Shown: positions 7,978 to 20,590 of the stretch, piece by piece
Numbering within the stretch: the stretch's first letter is position 1
Layout: every line of letters begins with the position of its first letter
Source: a virus
Lineage: Duplodnaviria; Heunggongvirae; Uroviricota; Caudoviricetes
DNA length: 24,534 bases
IMG/VR virus record: IMGVR_UViG_2548876935_000008
Direction: 5' to 3' (one strand)
Position numbers and translations under genes: made by a program
Notes under the pieces: model-generated
Seen by the model: only the letters and a program-made list of their open reading frames with translations
Database searches by the model: none
What the model was told of the DNA's origin: nothing

Positions 7978-9036
7978 TTACGCTCCGGTTTCGGCTGCGG
8001 CGGCGCTGAAATCACCAATCTGGATGTTTTCCACCAGTGCGGCGCAGCGGTAGTCCTCAACCACATAGGCTTCATTAACGGATTCAAAGTTTTCAATCCG
8101 GTCACGTTTCGGGTTGTCGATAACTGAACGGCGGCGGGTGTCTTCCTGCCAGTAGATGGACAGGTTATCCAGACGGGTGATCAGCAGTGCATTCGGCGGG
8201 AAGAACGGCGCACGCACGGCCTGCAGGCCACCCATGCGTTTCTGACTGATGATCATATCGGCAGCCAGTTTTTCACTGTTTTCCTGCTCTTTGTTGACCA
8301 GTGGGAAATACTTGTCAGACAACAGTTCACGACCGCAAATCACCACCAGATCGTCATCGTCCTGGTAGACCACGTCGATAAGCTCATTGACGGCATCCAT
8401 CACCACGGCGTCCAGGTTGGCATATTCGCCACCTTTCCCGACTTTCACCGCACCCGGTGTGGTTTCACCGCCCGTGGTGGTGCTGCCCATGACGTGATCC
8501 GGTGCATCCTCACGGATTTTCTGCAGCCAGCCTTTATTCACATCCTGCAGCAGCGGGTTTTCGCTACGGTTTGAGGTTTTCGCACGCTTCACGCCGTTAA
8601 AGCCGATCATGATGCGGTCCAGTGCCTGACGTTTCACGATCGCGTCACGAATACGCACCTGGAAATCCTGAAACTTCGCCCACAGGTCCAGCTTCGCGTA
8701 GGTCAGCACCGTGTCAAAGTTGGTCTGCTCGCATTTGTATTCCACATCGACCATCAGCGTCGGATCGACAGGCTCACGCTCTTTTGCGGTGGTATCAGTG
8801 GTTCCGGCAATGGTGCTGCCAACACCCAGCCCCAGCAGCTGACCAGACTGCTCGGTCACTGGCGTGACGTTAATCAGCGTCAGGAAAGCGGCGGATTGCT
8901 GGATCTGGTCTTCCAGCGTCTGCTGCACAGACGGCTCCACGGTGAACTTGCTGGACAGTTCTTCAACTGCCACACCGTTCAGACGCGCCAGCTGCTGCAG
9001 GTAAGCGTTAAAAGCAAAGCGGGTATTCTTCTTCAT
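7978..9036 (-). CDS. Major capsid protein (P2 gpN-like)
   Basis: 352 aa; N-terminus MKKNTRFAFNAYLQQLARLNGV and length match the P2 gpN family. Confidence 0.9.
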   Translation of the reverse strand: MKKNTRFAFNAYLQQLARLNGVAVEELSSKFTVEPSVQQTLEDQIQQSAAFLTLINVTPVTEQSGQLLGLGVGSTIAGTTDTTAKEREPVDPTLMVDVEYKCEQTNFDTVLTYAKLDLWAKFQDFQVRIRDAIVKRQALDRIMIGFNGVKRAKTSNRSENPLLQDVNKGWLQKIREDAPDHVMGSTTTGGETTPGAVKVGKGGEYANLDAVVMDAVNELIDVVYQDDDDLVVICGRELLSDKYFPLVNKEQENSEKLAADMIISQKRMGGLQAVRAPFFPPNALLITRLDNLSIYWQEDTRRRSVIDNPKRDRIENFESVNEAYVVEDYRCAALVENIQIGDFSAAAAETGA

Positions 9037-9052: not shown

Positions 9053-9886
9053 TCAGCAATTGGTCAGAGTGTCAGCGGGGGCGTTACCGCCTGTTGCACG
9101 CTGGCGGTAGTCCTGGCGGCTGTCTTCATGACTCAGCTTATTCACCAGTTCGTTAAAGGCGGTCTGCTGTGCCTGCAGGGCAGTCTCCAGCTCAGACAGA
9201 CGTTCTTCCTGCTCAGACAGGGATTTTTCGGTGCGTGCGCTCAGGTTCTGCTGCTCAGTGGCGACCAGCTCCACGGCCTTATGCACATCAGAGAACCGGG
9301 CGTCATCGGACTGCTCTTTTTTGGTGAACAGCGCCGTGACACGGGCAAACAGGGACGGTTTGTCATCCTGGATTTCTTCCAGTTCGATCACCGTTTCCTC
9401 TGCAGCGGTAAAGAGATTGGCAGGATTCTGCTTGCGGTTTGCCAGCGGGTTATGGGCTGCACTGGCGCTGAATGTCAGCATTTCAGTGCCCAGACTGGCA
9501 GGGTCATCAGTGGCAGCCAGGCCGACCAGGTAGGCTTTGCCCGTATCAGCGAACTTCGGGCTGACTTCCATAGAGGTGAATAATTTCTGGCCTTTTTTCA
9601 CCAGCTCCACCAGGGACTCCGTTGGCTCAACGTCGGCATACAGCGCCATCTTGCCTGCCAGCGGACCTTCCGTGATTTCTTCAGCAAACAGCGCCGTCAC
9701 CTTGCCGTAGCGGTTAAAGGTGCTGTCCGGCAGATAAGACTTGATGTGCTCAAGGTTAATCAGCGCGGTGTACACCGTCGGGTTGTAGCTGGCTGCCATC
9801 TGTTCCAGCCATTCACGCTGGATTTCGCGTCCGTCGGTGGTGGCACCTTCCACCCCGATGCGAAAACGCTTTACTTTCACTGTCAT
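9053..9886 (-). CDS. Capsid scaffolding protein (P2 gpO-like)
   Basis: 277 aa; MTVKVKRFRIGVEGATTDGREIQREWLEQMAASYNP... matches the gpO scaffold N-terminus. Divergent from P, as in P2. Confidence 0.85.
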   Translation of the reverse strand: MTVKVKRFRIGVEGATTDGREIQREWLEQMAASYNPTVYTALINLEHIKSYLPDSTFNRYGKVTALFAEEITEGPLAGKMALYADVEPTESLVELVKKGQKLFTSMEVSPKFADTGKAYLVGLAATDDPASLGTEMLTFSASAAHNPLANRKQNPANLFTAAEETVIELEEIQDDKPSLFARVTALFTKKEQSDDARFSDVHKAVELVATEQQNLSARTEKSLSEQEERLSELETALQAQQTAFNELVNKLSHEDSRQDYRQRATGGNAPADTLTNC

Positions 9887-10028: not shown

Positions 10029-11795
10029 ATGAACACCACACTGACACCCGCAGATCTCGATCCCCGTCGGCAGGCCATGCTGCTGTACTTTCAGGGATAC
10101 CGCGTAGCCCGCATTGCTGAAATGCTGGGCGAGAAAGTTGCAACCGTTCACAGCTGGAAAAAACGCGACAAGTGGGGTGACTATGGGCCGCTGGATCAGA
10201 TGCAGCTCACCACCGCCGCACGCTACTGCCAGCTCATTATGAAGGAGCACAAAGAAGGGAAAGATGTCAAAGAGATTGACCTGCTGGCGCGCCAGTCGGA
10301 ACGCCACGCGCGGATCGGCAAGTTTAACAATGGCGGCAACGAAGCCGACTTAAACCCTAACGTCGCCAACCGCAACAAAGGCCCGCGCCGTCAGCCGGAA
10401 AAGAATGTCTTCACCGATGAACAGATTGAGAAGCTGGAAGAAATCTTCCATTCCTCCATGTTCAACTACCAGCGCCACTGGTGGGAAGCCGGAAAAACCA
10501 ACCGCATCCGCAATCTGCTGAAGTCACGCCAGATCGGCGCGACCTTTTACTTTGCCCGTGAAGCCCTGATTGACGCTCTGCTTACCGGACGTAACCAGAT
10601 TTTTCTTTCCGCCAGCAAGGCACAGGCCCACGTCTTCAAACAGTACATCATCGACTTTGCCAAAGAAGTGGAGGTGGAGCTGAAAGGCGATCCGATGGTG
10701 CTTCCCAACGGGGCCACACTGTATTTCCTCGGCACCAATGCCCGCACTGCCCAGAGTTACCACGGTAACCTGTATCTGGATGAATATTTCTGGATACCGA
10801 AATTCCAGGAGCTGCGCAAAGTGGCATCCGGTATGGCTATTCACAAAAAATGGCGACAAACCTATTTTTCCACGCCATCCAGCCTGACACACAGTGCTTA
10901 TCCGTTCTGGTCCGGTGCGCTGTTCAACCGTGGGCGCAACAAAGCCGATAAGGTGGACATCGACCTGTCCCACAACAATCTGGCCCCCGGCCTGCTGTGC
11001 GCAGACGGGCAATACCGCCAGATAGTCACCGTGGAAGATGCGGTGCGCGGCGGCTGTAACCTGTTCGACCTCGACCAGTTGCGCATGGAGTACAGCCCGG
11101 ACGAATACCAGAACCTGCTGATGTGTGAGTTCGTAGACGATCTCGCGTCCGTGTTCCCGCTCAGCGAGCTGCAGGCGTGCATGGTGGACAGCTGGGAAGT
11201 CTGGACCGACTTTCATGCACTGGCCCTGCGCCCGTTTGGCTGGCGCGAGGTGTGGATCGGTTATGACCCGGCAAAAGGTACGCAGAACGGCGACAGTGCC
11301 GGATGCGTTGTGGTGGCTCCGCCAGCCGTGCCGGGCGGTAAGTTCCGCATTCTTGAGCGTCACCAGTGGCGCGGGATGGACTTCCGCGCCCAGGCGGACG
11401 CCATCAAAAAACTGACCGAACAGTACAACGTGACCTATATCGGCATCGACTCGACCGGCGTCGGTCACGGGGTTTATGAGAACGTGAAAGCGTTCTTTCC
11501 TGCCGTCCGGGAGTTTGTCTACAACCCCAACGTTAAAAACGCGCTGGTACTCAAGGCCTACGACATTATCAGCCACCGCCGTCTGGAGTTTGACGCCGGG
11601 CACACCGACATTGCGCAATCATTTATGGCAATCCGTCGCGCCACCACCGCCAGCGGCAACCGCCCGACCTATGAAGCCAGCCGCAGCGAAGAAGCCAGCC
11701 ACGCCGATCTGGCCTGGGCAACGATGCACGCACTGTTTAACGAACCGCTGCAGGGCGAATCCGCCAATGCCAGCAATATTGTGGAGATTTTTTGA
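10029..11795 (+). CDS. Terminase large (ATPase) subunit (P2 gpP-like)
   Basis: 588 aa; length, position and sequence character match P2 gpP. Stop overlaps the Q start (ATGA). Confidence 0.9.
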   Translation: MNTTLTPADLDPRRQAMLLYFQGYRVARIAEMLGEKVATVHSWKKRDKWGDYGPLDQMQLTTAARYCQLIMKEHKEGKDVKEIDLLARQSERHARIGKFNNGGNEADLNPNVANRNKGPRRQPEKNVFTDEQIEKLEEIFHSSMFNYQRHWWEAGKTNRIRNLLKSRQIGATFYFAREALIDALLTGRNQIFLSASKAQAHVFKQYIIDFAKEVEVELKGDPMVLPNGATLYFLGTNARTAQSYHGNLYLDEYFWIPKFQELRKVASGMAIHKKWRQTYFSTPSSLTHSAYPFWSGALFNRGRNKADKVDIDLSHNNLAPGLLCADGQYRQIVTVEDAVRGGCNLFDLDQLRMEYSPDEYQNLLMCEFVDDLASVFPLSELQACMVDSWEVWTDFHALALRPFGWREVWIGYDPAKGTQNGDSAGCVVVAPPAVPGGKFRILERHQWRGMDFRAQADAIKKLTEQYNVTYIGIDSTGVGHGVYENVKAFFPAVREFVYNPNVKNALVLKAYDIISHRRLEFDAGHTDIAQSFMAIRRATTASGNRPTYEASRSEEASHADLAWATMHALFNEPLQGESANASNIVEIF

Positions 11796-12829
11796 TGGGA
11801 AAGAGTAAGAAGAACCGCGCTGCGGCGACGAATCAGATCCAGCTTAAAAGTCAAACTACAGCCGAAGCATTCAGCTTCGGCGATCCCGTTCCTGTTCTGG
11901 ACCGCCGAGAATTACTGGACTATGTGGAATGCGTACAGATGGACCGTTGGTATGAGCCGCCCGTCAGCTTTGACGGACTGGCGCGCACCTTCCGCGCTGC
12001 CGTGCATCACAGTTCCCCGATTGCAGTAAAGTGCAACATTCTGACCAGTACCTATATCCCTCACCCGCTGCTCAGCCAGCAGGCTTTTTCACGTTTTGTG
12101 CAGGACTACCTGGTATTTGGTAACGCCTACCTGGAGAAACGCACGAACCGCTTCGGTGAAGTTATCGCCCTTGAGCCTGCGCTGGCAAAATACACCCGAC
12201 GCGGGTTAGACCTAGATACCTACTGGTTTGTGCAATACGGTATGACAACCCAGCCGTATCAGTTCACGAAAGGCAGCATTTTTCATCTGATGGAACCGGA
12301 CATCAACCAGGAGATCTACGGCTTGCCCGGCTATCTTTCTGCCATTCCATCCGCCCTGCTCAACGAATCCGCCACGCTGTTCCGCCGTAAGTATTACATC
12401 AACGGCAGCCATGCAGGCTTCATCATGTACATGACCGACGCCGCGCAGAATCAGGAGGATGTGAACAACCTCCGCAACGCGATGAAAAGCGCCAAAGGTC
12501 CAGGCAACTTCCGCAACCTGTTTATGTACTCGCCTAACGGCAAAAAGGACGGGCTTCAGATCATTCCTCTGTCAGAAGTCGCGGCGAAGGATGAGTTTCT
12601 GAATATCAAAAATGTCAGTCGCGATGACATGATGGCAGCACACCGCGTACCGCCGCAAATGATGGGGATTATGCCGAATAATGTTGGGGGTTTTGGGGAT
12701 GTGGAGAAGGCGAGTCGAGTTTTTGTGCGAAATGAATTGAGGCCACTACAAAAGAGCCTATTAGAGCTGAACAACTGGTTAAAGGAGGATGTAATACATT
12801 TTGAGGATTATAACTTAGATATTCAATAA
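11792..12829 (+). CDS. Portal protein (P2 gpQ-like)
   Basis: 345 aa; length and position (after P, next to the cos side of the genome) match P2 gpQ. Confidence 0.9.
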   Translation: MMGKSKKNRAAATNQIQLKSQTTAEAFSFGDPVPVLDRRELLDYVECVQMDRWYEPPVSFDGLARTFRAAVHHSSPIAVKCNILTSTYIPHPLLSQQAFSRFVQDYLVFGNAYLEKRTNRFGEVIALEPALAKYTRRGLDLDTYWFVQYGMTTQPYQFTKGSIFHLMEPDINQEIYGLPGYLSAIPSALLNESATLFRRKYYINGSHAGFIMYMTDAAQNQEDVNNLRNAMKSAKGPGNFRNLFMYSPNGKKDGLQIIPLSEVAAKDEFLNIKNVSRDDMMAAHRVPPQMMGIMPNNVGGFGDVEKASRVFVRNELRPLQKSLLELNNWLKEDVIHFEDYNLDIQ

Positions 12830-12833
12830 TCTT

Positions 12834-12857
12834 AAAAACCTGCATATGCAGGTTTTT
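12834..12857. terminator. Bidirectional rho-independent terminator between convergent Q and the three-gene cassette
   Basis: AAAAA-CCTGCATATGCAGG-TTTTT: perfect palindromic stem flanked by an A-run and a T-run, so it reads as a hairpin plus U-tract on both strands. Confidence 0.6.
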
Positions 12858-12892
12858 ACATTATATAGTTATAAAACTAACAAAAATCATAT

Positions 12893-13558
12893 TCAAAGCT
12901 CTGAGTCTACAGGCTCATGATAAAGGTTTACAGGGTAGTGTATAACCTCATAATTAAGTTGACTAACAGTGTGAGTATGTTGACTGTAAAAAACCAATGG
13001 GTTTCTCTTACAAGGAGTTATCGAGATAGACTTACAAGCATGAATTCTTGGAGCCGATTTATCTAAATGAGCCTTCCACTTAGTCATCATTTCATTACAT
13101 TTTTTATTACGCGTATATATAATTAACCCACCACTTGCACTGTCTACAGTACCAGTGCTATATCGCTCAGTGAGTTGTGCATACCCTTTAAATAAATAAC
13201 TATATGAACCAGTGTGTTTTTTGGCCTCGCCATGCCAAGTAAATCTATTCAACTTTATTGTTATATCACAATGACCTCGTTGATTATTTTCATGATATGC
13301 TTCAATTCCCATATCTTTATTTTTTATATTTGCCAGTAAAATTAAAGTAAGCTGATCTTCTGTTAAATCAAAATTCAATTTATTTGAATTTTCCTCAATT
13401 GCCTGTACAGCAGAATCAAGCTCAATTCTTACAAACTGTTTGAAGTTCTCATACGACTGGAGAGCAAACCTAACGCGAGTAATAGAAGCATTGATACGCT
13501 GAAGAAAAATATCATTATCAATTTCAGCTAAACTCATTGGTGCAGACATTTTTAACAT
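12893..13558 (-). CDS. Hypothetical protein, cassette gene 3 (221 aa); possible PD-(D/E)xK-like nuclease motif
   Basis: AT-rich ORF; ATG overlaps the upstream stop (TGATG). Contains ...GHCDITIKLNRFTWHGEAKKH..., a D-x12-E-A-K arrangement reminiscent of restriction-endonuclease-fold active sites (inference only). Confidence 0.55.
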   Translation of the reverse strand: MLKMSAPMSLAEIDNDIFLQRINASITRVRFALQSYENFKQFVRIELDSAVQAIEENSNKLNFDLTEDQLTLILLANIKNKDMGIEAYHENNQRGHCDITIKLNRFTWHGEAKKHTGSYSYLFKGYAQLTERYSTGTVDSASGGLIIYTRNKKCNEMMTKWKAHLDKSAPRIHACKSISITPCKRNPLVFYSQHTHTVSQLNYEVIHYPVNLYHEPVDSEL

Positions 13559-13992
13559 CAGACAATATCCTTTAATTTAGATTCATCTAATGTAAAAAAA
13601 GGAAAGACGAAGGACTTATAGTCATACATAATCTCCCCTGTAAATGGGTTTACTAAAGATTGATTAATTTCAGCCTCTATAACATCTTCTAACTCAAGCT
13701 CAATAGGATCATGAAAATCATCAATAAACCAATAATTGAGTTTTAAAAACTCAACCTTTGGACTACAAAGAATTTGTATAGCTGGGTACACAACCTGCTC
13801 ATATGCTTCAGGTTGTATACATCCTTTATAACCATTAACGATACTAAATAAATCTTTATAACTCAGAGCTATATTAGGCGATTTCTTTGCTCTCACACCA
13901 ATTTCATCATACAAATAGCAAGCTAGCGCCCCTATATCAGGGCGCTCTGCACATATTTCTTTGATGATCTGGGGCATATCACCATCCTTCAT
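13558..13992 (-). CDS. Hypothetical acidic protein, cassette gene 2 (about 144 aa)
   Basis: ORF 13558..14004 as tracked uses a TTG; the in-frame ATG at 13992 is preceded by GGAG at good spacing. AT-rich; no recognisable motif. Confidence 0.55.
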   Translation of the reverse strand: MKDGDMPQIIKEICAERPDIGALACYLYDEIGVRAKKSPNIALSYKDLFSIVNGYKGCIQPEAYEQVVYPAIQILCSPKVEFLKLNYWFIDDFHDPIELELEDVIEAEINQSLVNPFTGEIMYDYKSFVFPFFTLDESKLKDIV

Positions 13993-14004: not shown

Positions 14005-15111
14005 TTATAATATCAGCTTTGTGAGGGTTTCGAAATCATCTTTGGATATACATTTGCTTAATATAGCATAATTGACAGGAGAGCACCCACTACCACCTAA
14101 ATGTCTGCGTAATGTTCCTGGAATGATAAGCTCTACACTATCCGCCAATTGCAATTTTGGATTATTCCTATCTACTCTAATTCCAATACGATATAAACCA
14201 ATATTACCTACAGCTTTAATGCCCTCTTTATTAAACAGATCATCACGCAAGTCTTTCTTAGCCACATTTTTCTTTTCCTTATGAGTGGTTCCCTCATAAG
14301 TTAAAAATGACAAATCGAACACCTTATAACTTAAACTTGAATATGGCATTACATTTTGCTTGAAAATTGGCTCAATTAATGGATAAAAATCCTTTTCCGA
14401 TGAATTAAATTGATAACCTGCGCAATTATATAACTCACGAATAAAATTCGTTTTCGCAAAAACGATATTATCACCAACAACATTACCATTAGTATCAATT
14501 AATACATGGATTTTATTTGAAGCTGAATCTAATATACACACATCAAAACACTGACGTTTTTCTTTTCTCTTCGCAATGATTTCATCAAACTGTTTGTATG
14601 CTGCTAACTTTGACGGAGGGACTTTCTCTCTTACAACCAGCTCCCTGATAGATGAAAATACCAAAATAGACTGAGTATTTTGCTTAGAGTAATTAACAAG
14701 CTCAAGTTGATTTTTAATAGCATGCTGTAATTGAACATCATCAACAATCGTTTCGACTAATGATGTTGGTTGCTTCATCATATTCCATTGGAGAGCATAT
14801 CTATCATCAAGTAATTTAATTACTTGACTATCTACAGACAAACTAAATATTGCTTTTTCACCATAAACAACCTGCCCAAAGACTAAATCATTTACACTTG
14901 CAATGATTTTGTCAAATTTTTGCCTATCTTTCTTTTTAAAATCAATGAGGCTTTCTAGTATTTTGTCGTTTGTTGCTTCACGCCCTCTACCTGTAGGTAG
15001 CCCTAAAGAAGCAATAATTGGTCTGGCGATATGCCACGTAAAACGTTCAGTTAAGGCTAAGATCGACTTTAACTCAAAGTCAGAAAGCACCACTGGGACA
15101 CCACTTGTCAT
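14005..15111 (-). CDS. Hypothetical protein, cassette gene 1 (368 aa)
   Basis: Tracked ORF begins at a GTG (15120); the in-frame ATG at 15111 is preceded by AGGTG 6 nt upstream. AT-rich; no Walker A/P-loop seen; no recognised family. Confidence 0.6.
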   Translation of the reverse strand: MTSGVPVVLSDFELKSILALTERFTWHIARPIIASLGLPTGRGREATNDKILESLIDFKKKDRQKFDKIIASVNDLVFGQVVYGEKAIFSLSVDSQVIKLLDDRYALQWNMMKQPTSLVETIVDDVQLQHAIKNQLELVNYSKQNTQSILVFSSIRELVVREKVPPSKLAAYKQFDEIIAKRKEKRQCFDVCILDSASNKIHVLIDTNGNVVGDNIVFAKTNFIRELYNCAGYQFNSSEKDFYPLIEPIFKQNVMPYSSLSYKVFDLSFLTYEGTTHKEKKNVAKKDLRDDLFNKEGIKAVGNIGLYRIGIRVDRNNPKLQLADSVELIIPGTLRRHLGGSGCSPVNYAILSKCISKDDFETLTKLIL

Positions 15112-15271
15112 AACATGCACCTAGTCAACCCAAAAGCAATTGAAAATCGCTCTTGTCTTAATTTTTTCCATCAATATCTAACAAATTACCTTAATGTTGA
15201 AAAAGTTTGCAAGCCATTTGCGTCTAAAAAGTGACTTGACTCAATGTGTTACAAAGCTTAGCGAGCGCGCG

Positions 15272-15290
15272 CTCGTATCCCCGCCACGCC
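15272..15290 (-). other. Candidate cos site (cohesive-end region) of the P2/186-like phage
   Basis: Minus strand reads GGCGTGGCGGGGATACGAG. From memory, P2 and 186 cohesive ends begin GGCGAGGCGGGGAAAGCAC and GGCGTGGCGGGGAAAGCAT. Orientation relative to Q is as in P2. Adjacent perfect palindrome GCGAGCGCGCGCTCG at 15261..15275. Confidence 0.45.
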
Positions 15291-15339
15291 TGCCCGCTTT
15301 ATGTAGTAGTTTTCATGCAGGTGCATGATCTACGCAAAA

Positions 15340-15359
15340 GCCCGCCAGTTCTGGCGGGC
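15340..15359 (-). terminator. Rho-independent terminator downstream of the membrane-protein operon
   Basis: GCCCGCCAG-tt-CTGGCGGGC perfect stem; on the minus strand it is followed by TTTTGCG, just past the stop of the 280-aa ORF. Confidence 0.55.
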
Positions 15360-15407
15360 CTTAGCAAAAACGATCCTCAAACGATCATGCGATCTCATGC
15401 AGCATAG

Positions 15408-16250
15408 TCATGCACGATCATTTGACTCAGCATCTGCTGCACGCTTGCTGCGCGAAGATGCACTTTTACTACCAATCTTTCGACAGTTCTTTCTATCCCT
15501 GGCTTCATTTTCTTTAAATTTGTTATATGTCTCAGTATCAAAAAACGAAATTGTTTCAACCTCATCTTTTGGTATGAGCACACGGAAATCTTCGATATTA
15601 AGCCGAGACATTCCACTTATCACACCACTATCAAGATAATGTTGGTGATAGTTAGTCGTGATACTAATCGTTAGATCATCTTTATCCCGATATCCGCTTA
15701 ACATCGGGAGAAGTTCAAGGTGTTCTGAAAGCCCGTTTTCTAACGCCGGACAAGTAACAAGACCAACATAGATTTTGCGAGACGACAGAGTTGCTATGAT
15801 CGGAAACTGTCTTGCAGACGCTTCCATGAGTAATGATTCGAAAGCGTTATTACCCACAGCTTTAGCTAAGGCATCCCAGCGACGATCTCCACGTGATGTG
15901 CGTAACTTATTTCCAAAACCTGAAATCGCAGCGAGAACAATTGAAATCATAACCCATGCTATCTGTTTGATTTCATTTATTCTTTGAAGTTTGTCTTTCG
16001 ATGAAGACAACATGCCATTAAAACTGTCAGGTGTTAGATTCAAGGCATTAGCCAGCCAACGAAACCCTCCGCTGACGTTCAAAATAAAGGTGAAAAAACC
16101 GCCAAGGAGAAAAAAAACGATACCCCAGGCAGCCACAAAAAAATAAGCGTCCCAGCCGTTGGAACGCTTATATCGGTATCTTGTTGAAAGTGATAGGTTT
16201 ACATAAATAAAACCACTAACCAAAATCACTGCTAAAAGTAATGTTGCCAT
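15408..16250 (-). CDS. Hypothetical membrane protein (280 aa; about three N-terminal transmembrane helices plus a cytoplasmic domain)
   Basis: Hydrophobic segments MATLLLAVILVSGFIYV, FFVAAWGIVFFLLGGFFTFIL and IAWVMISIVLAAISGF; soluble C-terminal half of unknown fold. ATG overlaps the stop of the upstream 71-aa gene (TAATG). AT-rich. Confidence 0.6.
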   Translation of the reverse strand: MATLLLAVILVSGFIYVNLSLSTRYRYKRSNGWDAYFFVAAWGIVFFLLGGFFTFILNVSGGFRWLANALNLTPDSFNGMLSSSKDKLQRINEIKQIAWVMISIVLAAISGFGNKLRTSRGDRRWDALAKAVGNNAFESLLMEASARQFPIIATLSSRKIYVGLVTCPALENGLSEHLELLPMLSGYRDKDDLTISITTNYHQHYLDSGVISGMSRLNIEDFRVLIPKDEVETISFFDTETYNKFKENEARDRKNCRKIGSKSASSRSKRAADAESNDRA

Positions 16251-16465
16251 TATCTGGTTCTATTAGTTTTCTCTTTTACAGTGCTCGTTTTGATGCCTTC
16301 AAGCTTATCCATCTGTGCCTTGATGGCATCCATTGCTCTTTTGTTAGACAAGTCTACGGACACAAAACCATCTTTACTAAGATTGAGTTTGTCCTGGTTC
16401 TCTTTAAGAACCCTTGCCAGACGTTCAACTGGGTTACCCAGGCTAAATGCGGCGATGCTTGACAT
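16250..16465 (-). CDS. Hypothetical small protein (71 aa), translationally coupled to the membrane protein
   Basis: ATG at 16465 preceded by a strong Shine-Dalgarno (AAGGGGGAG); hydrophilic, Lys-rich; no recognised motif. Confidence 0.5.
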   Translation of the reverse strand: MSSIAAFSLGNPVERLARVLKENQDKLNLSKDGFVSVDLSNKRAMDAIKAQMDKLEGIKTSTVKEKTNRTR

Positions 16466-16735: not shown

Positions 16736-16969
16736 TTAATGCAGCCAGCTGTCGTCTTCCCACACCTTCTGCATAATTTTCATCACTTGCTTCCTTTCTT
16801 CGTCCAGTTGCAGTCCAGTCAGTTCCACACCGTTAGAGCTACCTTTGCGGATGCGAATTACCGTTTTTGGATATAGGGGGCGCAGATTGCGGTAAAGCTC
16901 GGATTCAAGGGCGTCCAGGGTAGACTGGCTAATCTTCTGCTCTTTATCGATCATTATTTCAATGCGCAT
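16736..16969 (-). CDS. dinI: DinI-family protein (DNA-damage-inducible protein I-like)
   Basis: ORF 16736..17041; start chosen at ATG 16969 (preceded by GAGGTGA). MRIEIMIDKEQKISQSTLDALESELYRNLRPLYPKTVIRIRKGSSNGVELTGLQLDEERKQVMKIMQKVWEDDSW resembles E. coli DinI (MRIEVTI...AL..EL.RR...FPD....V.......L.V.G...E.K..I..ILQE.WE..D.W). Confidence 0.7.
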   Translation of the reverse strand: MRIEIMIDKEQKISQSTLDALESELYRNLRPLYPKTVIRIRKGSSNGVELTGLQLDEERKQVMKIMQKVWEDDSWLH

Positions 16970-16979
16970 AAAAGTCACC

Positions 16980-17168
16980 TCAGCTGATGACATCCATTGA
17001 GCGGTTGTATTCGTGGGTTCTGATTTTTGCCATGAGTTCATCTGTCAGTTCAGAAACCCACTGCAAAGCCAGCCCCTTCTCTTCATCACTACACTCACTA
17101 GCCGCTACAAGCTTAAGAAAAAAATCAATGCGCTGGAGCTTCAAAGACTCCAAAAAATAGTCCTGCAT
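16980..17168 (-). CDS. Small SOS-regulated protein, putative Tum-like antirepressor (62 aa)
   Basis: ORF 16980..17270; start chosen at ATG 17168 (MQDYFLESLKLQ...), preceded by AGGAGGAAAG. Sits directly downstream of a LexA box and upstream of a DinI-like gene, the arrangement of the 186 tum operon. Function inferred from context only. Confidence 0.45.
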   Translation of the reverse strand: MQDYFLESLKLQRIDFFLKLVAASECSDEEKGLALQWVSELTDELMAKIRTHEYNRSMDVIS

Positions 17169-17211
17169 CTTTCCTCCTATGACACCACAAGCAATACTGT
17201 ATGTACAACCA

Positions 17212-17227
17212 CTGTTTATATTTACAG
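17212..17227. promoter_or_regulatory. LexA box (SOS operator), CTGT-N8-ACAG, in the promoter of the tum/dinI-like operon
   Basis: Seen directly: CTGTTTATATTTACAG, a perfect match to the CTGT-N8-ACAG consensus, 44-59 bp upstream of the ATG at 17168 and overlapping AT-rich -10-like hexamers. A partial second site (CTGTATGTACAACCAC) abuts it at 17197..17212. Confidence 0.6.
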
Positions 17228-17321
17228 TATATAATAATCTTACTGATGTAAAACGTTTTTTTACGTTCATCAGCCTGATATGCCTGGTATTATTAAGAGC
17301 ACGAATTGTTAACCCGCGTAA

Positions 17322-19736
17322 TTAATACAGGTTTCGCCACTTATCATCTTCCTGCAAACGCTGGTTCCGATAGAAGATACGCAGGCCTGCTCCTGACGGA
17401 ATACTGCCGCCGCGAAGGAGTAAATCGACCTCTTTCTCGCTGCCATCAAATCCTCTGGACTTCAGTTCATAGACGAGCTGCTGTCGCTGATGGTCTGTAA
17501 TTCGCTGTTTGTAGTCTTTACGCCGTTTCGGTTTCACCAGGCGTAACCTTGCAGCCAGTTCCCGGCGCTCTTTTTTGCTCATACTGTGCAGGTAATCGTG
17601 CAACTCCTTGTCATCCATGCGGGTAATGTCCGTCCTGGTATCCCCATCAGCTGATTTGTCTTTCCCTTGTTGGTTCAAATTTTCAGCAAGGGGACAGTTA
17701 TTGCCACGAGTCCAAGGGGCGCAAGCGCCCTGGTCGGCTGCCGCCTCCTGAACGTCAACGGCCTTACGAACTATTTTCCACTTCACTGCATGAGTGCAGA
17801 TCTTGCCCTCTGCAATGGGTGACCAGATGCCATAAATACGAATACCGTGATCACCATAGGCGGTCGGCTCTTCGTTGATTTCATAAGCGGTTCTGATCAA
17901 GTGATATTTGCGGGGAACCAGTACGCCGCCCTGCTTCATGATGTAGGTGGCAAAACAACCAGCATCAGCAGCAGCCAGGATGGCATCAAGGCGCGGGTTA
18001 TCCAGTACCGGCGCACCTGCTTTTTTGTCACCCTGTTGCCTTGCCGCCTGACCAGCCAGCAATCGCAGTTCACGGTAAGCCTGACGCCCCGGAATGCCAA
18101 AGAAGCGGAATTGCTGAACACGATGCAGAGACGCCCAGGCATTAACGTATTCAGCGTTATCACGCAGGGATTTACCCGTTTCCTTACTGATCTCGCCAGC
18201 CAGACCACGCCCGTCAATATTCTTACTGATATATTTCGCAATGTAGCTTGTCGGCGTTCCTTTGCGCGGGTTTATCAGCTCAGACTTAAAGCGTGGCCCC
18301 GTGTTATTGCCCAGCTCCTCGCGGTCTTCACGGATGGCAAACTTACGCAACAATGCAGTAATGGCGCGGCGGTCTTTTTTGCGCATGAAACACAACAGGT
18401 GCCAGTGAACTGTGCCGTCATGATGCGGCTCAGCCACCCGCACGCCATACCAGCGCAACCCGGCTTTGTGCATAGCCTTACGAAATGCAGCAAACATGCC
18501 GACCAGATAATCGCTGCTTTGTCTTACTGTCGCGTTGGTCCAGGTCGGGTTTGGCCTACCGTTATTTAGCGTGGAATGGAAACGTGACGGACAAGTGATG
18601 GTGTAGAAAACGGCGCAGTCACCACGCATTTCCGCGATAAGCTCCAGGCCTTTAACACAGGCCATCATCTCGTTGCGGCGATGCGCCGGGTTGCTGCTGC
18701 TGGCGTTTACCACATCCTCCATGTTCAGCGTGTCGCCGTCTTCGTTCACCAGTTCATGAGAACGGAAAAACTCCAGCGACTTACGGCGCTGCTCACGTTT
18801 ATGCATCACGGCTTCATAGCTGACATAGGGAGATGCTTTTTTGCTGACCAGGCAGACAGCACGCAACTGCTCTTCCCGCCATTCGCAACGCATCTTCCAT
18901 AATTTCCGATACCACCAGTCGGCGCACAGCATACGCGCCAGCGACCCCGGAATGAGTTCATAGGGCACGGGTTTACGGCGGTTTCTTTTCCGGCGGAGTT
19001 GCTCAAACGCAGGCGGTATGACATCCAGTCGCAGGGTTTCTGCTGCCACCTTTTCCCATGTCTTGCGGATTTCTTCTGGCTTAACGTCATCGGTGGCATA
19101 CAAATCACCACAAGCGGCATCAAGGCACATGCTCATATGCGCAGCGACAAGGATAGACAGGCGCTTCACCTGATCCTGACTCATTTCAGGCAGGATAAGC
19201 AGGCCATCCAGCCCTTCATGGCTTGCCATAAAGCGAAAAGAAGTGGATAGCTGACAGTCGCGGACATGCTCCAGTCGTTCCAGACATGGCTTAATCGTCT
19301 CACGCAAATAGCGGGAATAAGCCTTTGGCCTGCCCAGGCTGCTGAAATATTCAATACGTTGCATCAGCGGCTTGCTGATATGGGAAGGCTGGGCATTGAC
19401 GTCAGCCAGAATGACCATGTCTGGATTAAAACGCTGCTGCTCATGCGCCAGCTTTGCCCTGCTAATGAGCTTATCCTGCTCCATTTCGCGCTGGACAGGA
19501 TCACGGGATTCATTAAAGAAATAACGCTCCCAGACCTGATCACTCAGTGCCTCGCGGCGCAGTTGTTCCTGCTCGTTATCGGCAGCGTACAGAGTGATCA
19601 GGTTTGAAAGTGCAGAAACCGGCGCAACTTCCGCCGGGTCCTGATAAGGGTTAATAGCCTTTTTCGGGCTGTTCCATGAGAATGCTGCGGCGACCTCGTT
19701 AAAGCCGCTGCAGTTGTTCATATCATCATGGCTCAT
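17322..19736 (-). CDS. Replication initiation protein (P2 gpA-like rolling-circle endonuclease)
   Basis: 804 aa; position between the early-region genes and the cos-proximal cargo as in P2/186. Contains an HUH-type stretch ([10 protein letters not shown]). Stop of the upstream dam gene overlaps the start. Confidence 0.8.
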
Positions 19737-20590
19737 GCACGCACTCCGTATACGGCTGAACTATCCACGCCACGCGAAGGATCAAATCCCACCCAGCAGC
19801 GCGGCCCGGAAACAGCGATGATTTCAGTTGCAGATTTACTCTCACCAGCTGCTACGCCGATGCTGCGTTTTGCCTTGATGTAGTGGTGAGTAAAATTGCG
19901 ATACAGCGAACGGATCAGGGATGTGTCACTGTTAGAAACAATGACCGGATGTCCTTCTGATGACCGATGTTCAAGCACAGATGCCAGGCGATACTGGTCA
20001 TCTTCAGTGAAGCCATCAGTGTGATAGCCGGAAAACGTACCGTCATAAGGCGGATCGCAATACACAACATCCCCCGCGTGCAACATCGCCAGCGTTTCAT
20101 CGAAGCTGGCGCAGATAAACGTTGCCCGCTGGGCTTTCTCTGCAAATGCGCGAATTTCTTTTTCAGGGAAATACGGATTTTTATAATTACCGTAGGGAAT
20201 GTTGAAATGCCCGCTCTTGTTATAGCGACATAACCCACGGTAACCATGTCGATTGAGATACAGGAAATATACCGCTTTCATGAAATTAGTAATTTCAGTT
20301 GAGTAGTTAAACTCCTGCCTTATGTTGTAATAAGCCACCTCCCTGTTTGCTTCCTCAAATAAAACTCTGGCGCGAGATATAAATAATTCACAATCAGCGG
20401 CAACCTTTTTATAGAGGTTGATTAAATCAGGATTAATATCCGCAACCAGATAGCTGGGGTAATCCGTTTCCATCATCACTGCACAGGAACCCGCGAAAGG
20501 TTCAACCAGTCGCAGGCCAGCAGGAAGGTGTTTTTTCAGTTCTGGCATAATGGCGGTTTTATTTCCCGCCCATTTCAGGATGGTGCTCAT
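19733..20590 (-). CDS. dam: DNA adenine methyltransferase (Dam-like, N6-adenine MTase)
   Basis: 285 aa; motif I ([11 protein letters not shown]) and catalytic motif IV DPPY (VYCDPPYDG) are both visible in the translation. Confidence 0.85.

Follow-up and report, generated by a model that had tools for sequence, protein, structure and literature searches.

What the Rex system of phage lambda senses has been an open question for decades. Restriction-fold effectors occur in Avs proteins, and the usual order in Avs and NLR-like proteins places the effector first, the C-terminal position being usual for sensor domains. In P2, the interval between cos and the portal gene measures only about 120 bp, and the classical old/tin position lies between gpA and cos. 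RexA has been described as a non-specific DNA-binding sensor with an RdgC/IML3/CENP fold (PMC11077077). The gpA-to-gpQ interval of P2 is a defence hotspot in which several systems have been validated; the same hotspot harbors Rst_3HP (hp+hp+hp), which consists of three 'hypothetical proteins' and lies beside the same type of cos as the locus described here (Rousset et al., 2022, PMC9122126). PD-(D/E)xK is the commonest domain among newly validated systems, accounting for 13 of 31 in DefensePredictor (PMC13092281). The window considered here (the whole 24,534-nucleotide stretch of DNA that was analysed) carries three adjacent genes, A, B and C, in this hotspot, and C encodes the likely killing component of a candidate three-gene anti-phage cassette. 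Since PD-(D/E)xK domains are so frequent in newly validated systems, such a cassette is no conceptual surprise; the combination of parts, an RdgC/RexA-fold protein with a putative acidic adaptor and a predicted nuclease, is new.

The backbone gene assignments identify the window as a P2-like prophage (Table 1). GC content drops from about 55% in the backbone to 33% between Q and gpA, cassette included, and the low-GC stretch from cos to the end of Q holds the three co-oriented minus-strand genes. A P2-type cos core bounds the cassette upstream and thus places it between cos and the portal gene, within the gpA-to-gpQ defence hotspot of P2. The DNA around this core (15265-15400) is 97% identical to that of P2-like phages, and the identical cos string recurs in the P2-hotspot sequence that was cloned from E. 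coli E1114 (Rousset et al., Table S2A, PMC9122126). Convergent Q and C are separated by a hairpin with folding energies of -14.8 kcal/mol (z -5.6) on one strand and -15.4 kcal/mol (z -4.8) on the other, which looks like a bidirectional terminator; it is not among the calls of a consensus terminator scan. A promoter scan detected no site upstream of gene A, and its overall yield did not exceed that from shuffled sequence; Rfam gave no match over the entire window.

Table 1. Positions of the cassette genes, predicted active-site residues and flanking prophage features in the window.
Feature	Position	Strand	Basis or remark
Capsid gpN	7978-9036	-	backbone
Scaffold gpO	9053-9886	-	backbone
Terminase gpP	10029-11795	+	backbone
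Portal gpQ (gene Q)	11792-12829	+	backbone
Hairpin AAAAACCTGCATATGCAGGTTTTT, A-run/T-run flanks	12826-12866	both	between convergent Q and gene C
Gene C, 221-aa predicted PD-(D/E)xK nuclease	12893-13558	-	ORF
H207 of C, conserved	12938-12940	-	alignment
H196 of C, conserved	12971-12973	-	alignment
Motif GHCDITIKLNRFTWHGEAKKH, residues 95-115 of C	13214-13276	-	sequence
K113 of C	13220-13222	-	motif residue
E111 of C	13226-13228	-	motif residue
D98 of C	13265-13267	-	motif residue
H96 of C, conserved	13271-13273	-	alignment
H89 of C, conserved	13292-13294	-	alignment
E67 of C, accompanying invariant Glu	13358-13360	-	alignment
Gene B, 144-aa acidic protein	13558-13992	-	proposed nuclease adaptor or inhibitor
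Gene A, 368-aa basic protein	14005-15111	-	RdgC/RexA/IML3-like predicted fold; proposed DNA-binding sensor
P2-type cos core GGCGTGGCGGGGATACGAG	15272-15290	-	sequence; upstream cassette boundary
Replication protein gpA	17322-19736	-	backbone

Several features of the prophage lie beside the cassette. The cos core separates two cargo modules, A-B-C occupying the short cos-to-portal interval and not the old/tin position. The second, independent module, past cos (15408-16465, minus strand), encodes two proteins. One, of 280 aa, weakly resembles membrane-protein families in its N-terminal part (PHROG 3630, a family without assigned function); the other is a 71-aa basic protein of PHROG 9843, likewise a family without known function. 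The module is missing both from strain PA45B and from each of the 27 related viral loci with A-B-C, which indicates that two accessory modules are stacked in one hotspot here. Nearer to gpA, two mechanically called ORFs overlap (16736-17041 and 16980-17270, minus strand); the 101-aa DinI call is over-extended upstream into its neighbour, the DinI domain covering residues 38-100, and RefSeq has a 77-aa protein in the near-identical PA45B prophage. Directly downstream of gpA, a 285-aa ORF (19733-20590, minus strand) corresponds to a DNA adenine methylase in the PA45B annotation. This gene belongs to the prophage backbone, not to the cassette, and would become relevant if C proves methylation-sensitive.

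The three cassette genes are closely packed. The mechanical ORF of B extends to 14004 from a TTG, but the start is placed at an ATG at 13992, which is preceded by a GGAG ribosome-binding site, lies 12 nt after the stop of A and yields 435 nt, the RefSeq length. The TGA stop of B overlaps the ATG of C (TGATG). The same order, convergent with the portal gene Q, recurs in all 27 IMG/VR loci that contain a relative of A (L023-L049), and A-B-C is also found in metagenomic relatives at only 30-37% identity (L003, L006, L018-20). In one of these (L006) the cassette adjoins a restriction-modification system, and its A is homologous to that of the window (hhalign probability 96%). The element that houses A-B-C in Pantoea (L014) is ICE-like and also encodes integrases, a TraI relaxase and ArdC. 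Linkage is thus strict, C usually being the last gene of a conserved operon, and the best explanation is that A-B-C forms a translationally coupled three-gene operon carried as cargo by P2-like prophages and other mobile elements.

Alleles of the cassette differ widely: identities to the window for C, A and B include 91/84/84, 62/58/52 and 60/47/39%. In each of the 27 viral loci C shows the highest conservation of the three proteins, and B is the least conserved or tied with A. In some prophages the backbone is 94-99% identical to the window, yet the cassette genes reach only 52-62%, which points to cassette replacement by recombination. Among 5426 complete E. coli genomes, 21 contain at least 80% of the cassette query, and it is always annotated as three hypothetical proteins.

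The coding strand of C is the minus strand, the plus-strand translation of the same interval being riddled with stops. The first-pass annotation, which named no strand, had proposed a PD-(D/E)xK motif in this 221-aa protein, with E-A-K 12 residues past an Asp. The motif is indeed present at residues 95-115, and 12 residues intervene between D98 and E111-A112-K113. Taken alone, however, the pattern says little and is not above chance: of 5000 shuffles of C that preserve its composition, 55% contain D-x(8-20)-[DE]-x-K and 6% the stricter D-h-x-h...[DE]xK. The signal for a nuclease site comes from conservation, not from the motif. In an alignment of 187 homologues (about 25-90% identity, including very divergent members at 25-41%), G95, D98, E111, K113 and Y133 are identical in every sequence; E67 is identical in 185, the remaining two being N-terminally truncated fragments. 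W108, G125, Q128 and R132 are conserved in at least 99%. Four histidines (H89, H96, H196 and H207), conserved in 87-98% of the same homologues, lie outside the canonical PD-(D/E)xK motif and may constitute an additional site for a metal or ligand.

Structure prediction, which the first-pass annotation had suggested as a check, supports this assignment. The AlphaFold2 model of C, built on a 38-sequence alignment, is confident overall (pLDDT 90.3, pTM 0.86) and contains helix 67-76, strands 85-88, 99-103 and 106-115, helix 119-131 and strand 142-149, which is the canonical alpha-beta-beta-beta-alpha-beta order of the PD-(D/E)xK core. A helical hairpin (residues 10-56) precedes the core. Helix 67-76, the first of the core, begins with E67 and contributes it as an additional acidic residue, and E111-x-K113 falls within the third strand. 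D98 had been assigned to the end of a hydrophobic strand; in the model it stands immediately before the second strand (99-103, ITIKL), that is, at its start, where the PD aspartate is canonically found. Within the core, model confidence is lowest in the loop that bears D98 (mean pLDDT 73 for residues 91-100). Foldseek comparison of the model with the PDB returned weak matches, the top ones being McrC (the best, E 4e-3) and Bax1, both nucleases of the restriction fold. Together with the invariant E67, D98, E111 and K113, the order of core elements supports the proposed nuclease site, and C is very probably, on the strength of the predicted fold, a restriction-enzyme-fold nuclease. Because there is no profile link to a curated nuclease family, the superfamily assignment rests on the predicted structure and the motif.

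At the sequence level the family stands apart. A word-indexed search recovered 38 clusters related to C, all from Enterobacterales and 37-100% identical, and an exhaustive profile search raised this to 578 representative clusters at 50% identity (E<=1e-3; 458 at E<=1e-10), so that the family comprises at least 578 clusters at that level. Neither C itself (Pfam, NCBIfam, PADLOC) nor any of 124 diverse family members (Pfam) gave a match. The same three collections returned nothing for any cassette protein, and in PADLOC-DB v2.0.0 (2023) no system model reached E<=1 with A, B or C; PHROGs placed the cassette proteins only in families of unknown function, and phmmer and profile searches of PDB sequences with A, B and C found no related chain. 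Since no sequence profile of any curated member family matches it, C is a new family within the PD-(D/E)xK superfamily and not a member of an existing one. In source annotations its relatives are called 'hypothetical protein' or, for the fusions described below, 'HEAT repeat protein'.

The C domain also occurs with other partners. In a metagenomic phage contig (L002, 2765-4764), a 458-aa protein is encoded upstream of a C homologue, its stop overlapping the C start. This protein combines TIR_2, hydrophobic stretches resembling transmembrane helices and a B-like C-terminal segment of 135 residues, which has in common with B the motifs FIDD, HP-x-TGE and D[FY]...FP[FY]F. The arrangement of this fusion, together with the overlap, suggests from sequence comparison that B may be a portable coupling domain for the C nuclease. 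The TIR partner was also considered as a relative of A and rejected, since it bears no resemblance to A. In three further loci (L015-L017), B and C are present without A. In another arrangement, the C domain is fused to the extreme C-terminus of STAND NTPases of 712-1226 aa that contain a NACHT or NB-ARC domain and HEAT repeats (for example P0094 in L021, 6001-9597, and P0124, P0137, P0148, P0154, P0160, P0210 and P0206); one such fusion belongs to the cyanobacterium Fischerella. A B-like domain was sought in these fusions and none was found; nor was any other effector domain, which leaves C as their sole enzyme-like module besides the NTPase. One enzyme domain with varied sensor or NTPase partners is, by analogy, the pattern of conflict-system effectors. 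This domain shuffling, in both the NACHT-HEAT-C fusions and the pairing with a TIR protein, supports the earlier suggestion that C is the likely effector of the cassette.

The partners of C in the window are one basic and one acidic protein. The predicted structure of A has the RdgC/IML3/CENP-L fold, the same relatives as reported for RexA, RexA itself falling outside the top 60 structure matches; A has no sequence similarity to any PDB chain. Relatives of A occur in the genomes that also contain relatives of C, and in several records the locus tags of the two are two gene positions apart (e.g., EH227_04730/04740 and MXL79_10825/10835). Gene A is listed as a 'Predicted novel defense gene' with a mean log-odds of 8.40 (DefensePredictor Table S10, Science 2026, PMC13092281). 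In Klebsiella sp. I138 (L010, 6437-7548 and 8716-8987) the A homologue is split over two reading frames and the portal gene is reduced to a fragment, which gives the locus the look of a prophage remnant whose cassette copy is decaying. A 'Recombination-associated protein RdgC' appears in a product-name and score table (DefensePredictor Table S3, PMC13092281); if those scores reflect predicted defence, RdgC-fold proteins may serve immunity beyond this cassette. B is small and acidic (pI 4.3, net charge -13), as are its homologues.

Every source examined labels A, B and C as 'hypothetical'. In Table S5A of Rousset et al. (2022, PMC9122126) the three proteins (WP_021580613, WP_021580614 and WP_021580615) are listed only as 'hypothetical' P2-locus entries, and the cassette proteins are absent from the system sequences in the portions of Tables S2A/B consulted. 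In the parts of the DefensePredictor (PMC13092281) and Rousset 2022 supplements covered by accession and peptide-string searches, the cassette appears only in loci or prediction lists, with no sign of cloning or validation. The literature searched contains no experiment of any kind on the C family; the PADLOC release used dates from 2023, and the system may have been named since.

On balance, C appears to be the metal-dependent endonuclease effector of A-B-C, with anti-phage defence or abortive infection as the most likely function. What follows on cleavage, its target, the parts played by A and B and protection against phage is inferred. The predicted active site would comprise E67 in the first core helix, D98 where strand 2 begins, and E111-x-K113 within strand 3. 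By analogy with its fold relatives, the basic A protein may bind DNA, either as such or as a DNA or DNA-protein structure produced by the phage. B, small, very acidic and fast-evolving, may be a dedicated partner of C that tethers it to the sensor or holds it inactive. Upon infection C would be released or assembled and would cut nucleic acid, stopping the phage and possibly the cell; judging from the neighbours of C, the target would probably be DNA. A wider proposal is more tentative. A-B-C may represent a new and widespread type of phage exclusion, in which an RdgC/RexA-fold protein reads phage DNA or a replication or recombination intermediate and, via B as a dedicated acidic adaptor or inhibitor, licenses nucleases of a PD-(D/E)xK family not recognised before. 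The B-C pair would then be a portable effector module reused with TIR-membrane proteins, and C by itself with NACHT-HEAT sensors, from Enterobacterales to cyanobacteria.

The most serious rival is that B and C form a toxin-antitoxin or effector-immunity pair, in which C is a toxin held by B, A is an accessory regulator and the selected function is addiction to, or stabilisation of, the mobile element. This overlaps with the effector model and is compatible with defence. The fusion of B to a TIR-membrane protein fits an antitoxin, but fits an adaptor equally well; the sensor-B-C order, with A kept in most loci, including very distant ones, and the fusion of C to NACHT-HEAT proteins that lack any B-like domain both argue against it, and as an alternative to the effector model it appears unlikely. 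Lambda Red consists of an exonuclease, a DNA-binding protein and the small acidic Gam, and the cassette could by comparison be a recombination or DNA-processing module, with C as a recombination exonuclease and A as a RecA-modulating, RdgC-like DNA binder. This is improbable, even though A does resemble the recombination mediator RdgC. More improbable still is a C that retains the nuclease fold as a non-catalytic nucleic-acid-binding or sensor module while another protein kills. Inactive PD-(D/E)xK domains are known, and in NACHT-HEAT-C proteins the C domain sits at the C-terminus, the place usually held by sensor domains; yet these proteins lack any other effector, and E67, D98, E111 and K113 are invariant across the 187 sequences (E67 bar the two fragments), which is unexpected for inactivated domains. 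Least probable of all is the reading of C as an orphan type II restriction enzyme, BamHI-like in structure, whose methyltransferase is encoded elsewhere, for instance the adenine methylase that adjoins gpA. In its favour are the closest structures to C (OkrAI, BamHI, BstYI and BglII) and the presence of that methylase gene in the prophage. Against it, the methylase is conserved prophage backbone, no examined locus has a methyltransferase in or linked to the cassette, and C lacks sequence similarity to BamHI, is fused to STAND NTPases and is paired with B and TIR proteins.

If the effector model is confirmed, the immune effectors would gain a nuclease family that lacks annotation and numbers at least 578 clusters (50% identity), and the RdgC/RexA DNA-binding fold would be linked to a nuclease output. 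The cassette would then offer a tractable soluble system for what Rex-like sensors recognise, and B would stand as a new case of a module dedicated to effector coupling and common to otherwise unrelated sensors. Profile models of A, B and C could allow defence-annotation tools to spot the cassette in P2-like prophages, ICE-like elements and metagenomes. The cassette is a good candidate for experiment.

Compared with nuclease effectors of described systems, C differs in its partners. Hachiman HamA, McrC, NucC, Can2/Card1 and Cap4 act with a helicase, the McrB GTPase or cyclic-oligonucleotide sensors, which are not the partners of C; C also has no ligand-binding domain, and none of the PADLOC models for those nucleases matches it. 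Two described systems were considered as possible identities of the cassette and rejected. One is the YejK/NA37 system validated in DefensePredictor, but this consists of a single protein, distinct from those of the cassette, and that protein has a full match to Pfam NA37. Rst_3HP has in common with A-B-C the three-gene format and the hotspot, but the proteins are unrelated: when Hp1, Hp2 and Hp3 (E. coli E1114) were compared with A, B, C and the respective profiles by BLASTP and hmmsearch, no hit fell below E 0.05.

The type II PD-(D/E)xK enzymes BamHI, OkrAI, BstYI and BglII are structurally closest to C, but there is no detectable sequence relationship; alignment of the C profile to BamHI with hhalign gave a probability of 0.35% over an unrelated stretch only. 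Unlike these enzymes, C has the extra N-terminal helical hairpin (10-56) and a conserved C-terminal His-rich sheet. It also lacks a linked methyltransferase, its neighbours always being B and A, a TIR protein or nothing, unless it is itself fused to a STAND NTPase. Such fusions recall the Avs/bNACHT STAND proteins, in that homologues of C are likewise joined to NACHT or NB-ARC NTPases with HEAT repeats. In NACHT-HEAT-C, however, the nuclease domain is C-terminal, after the repeats, the reverse of the effector-first order of Avs, and the cassette of the window has no NTPase.

A parallel in overall design is lambda RexAB. RexAB has the polytopic membrane partner RexB in its operon, whereas both B and C are soluble; the 280-aa membrane protein beyond cos lies outside the A-B-C operon and is missing from 27 of 27 viral loci as well as from PA45B. 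Like the cassette, RexAB is prophage-encoded and combines a DNA-binding sensor with a separate killing component, roles that A and C would fill here, and the predicted fold of A resembles that reported for RexA.
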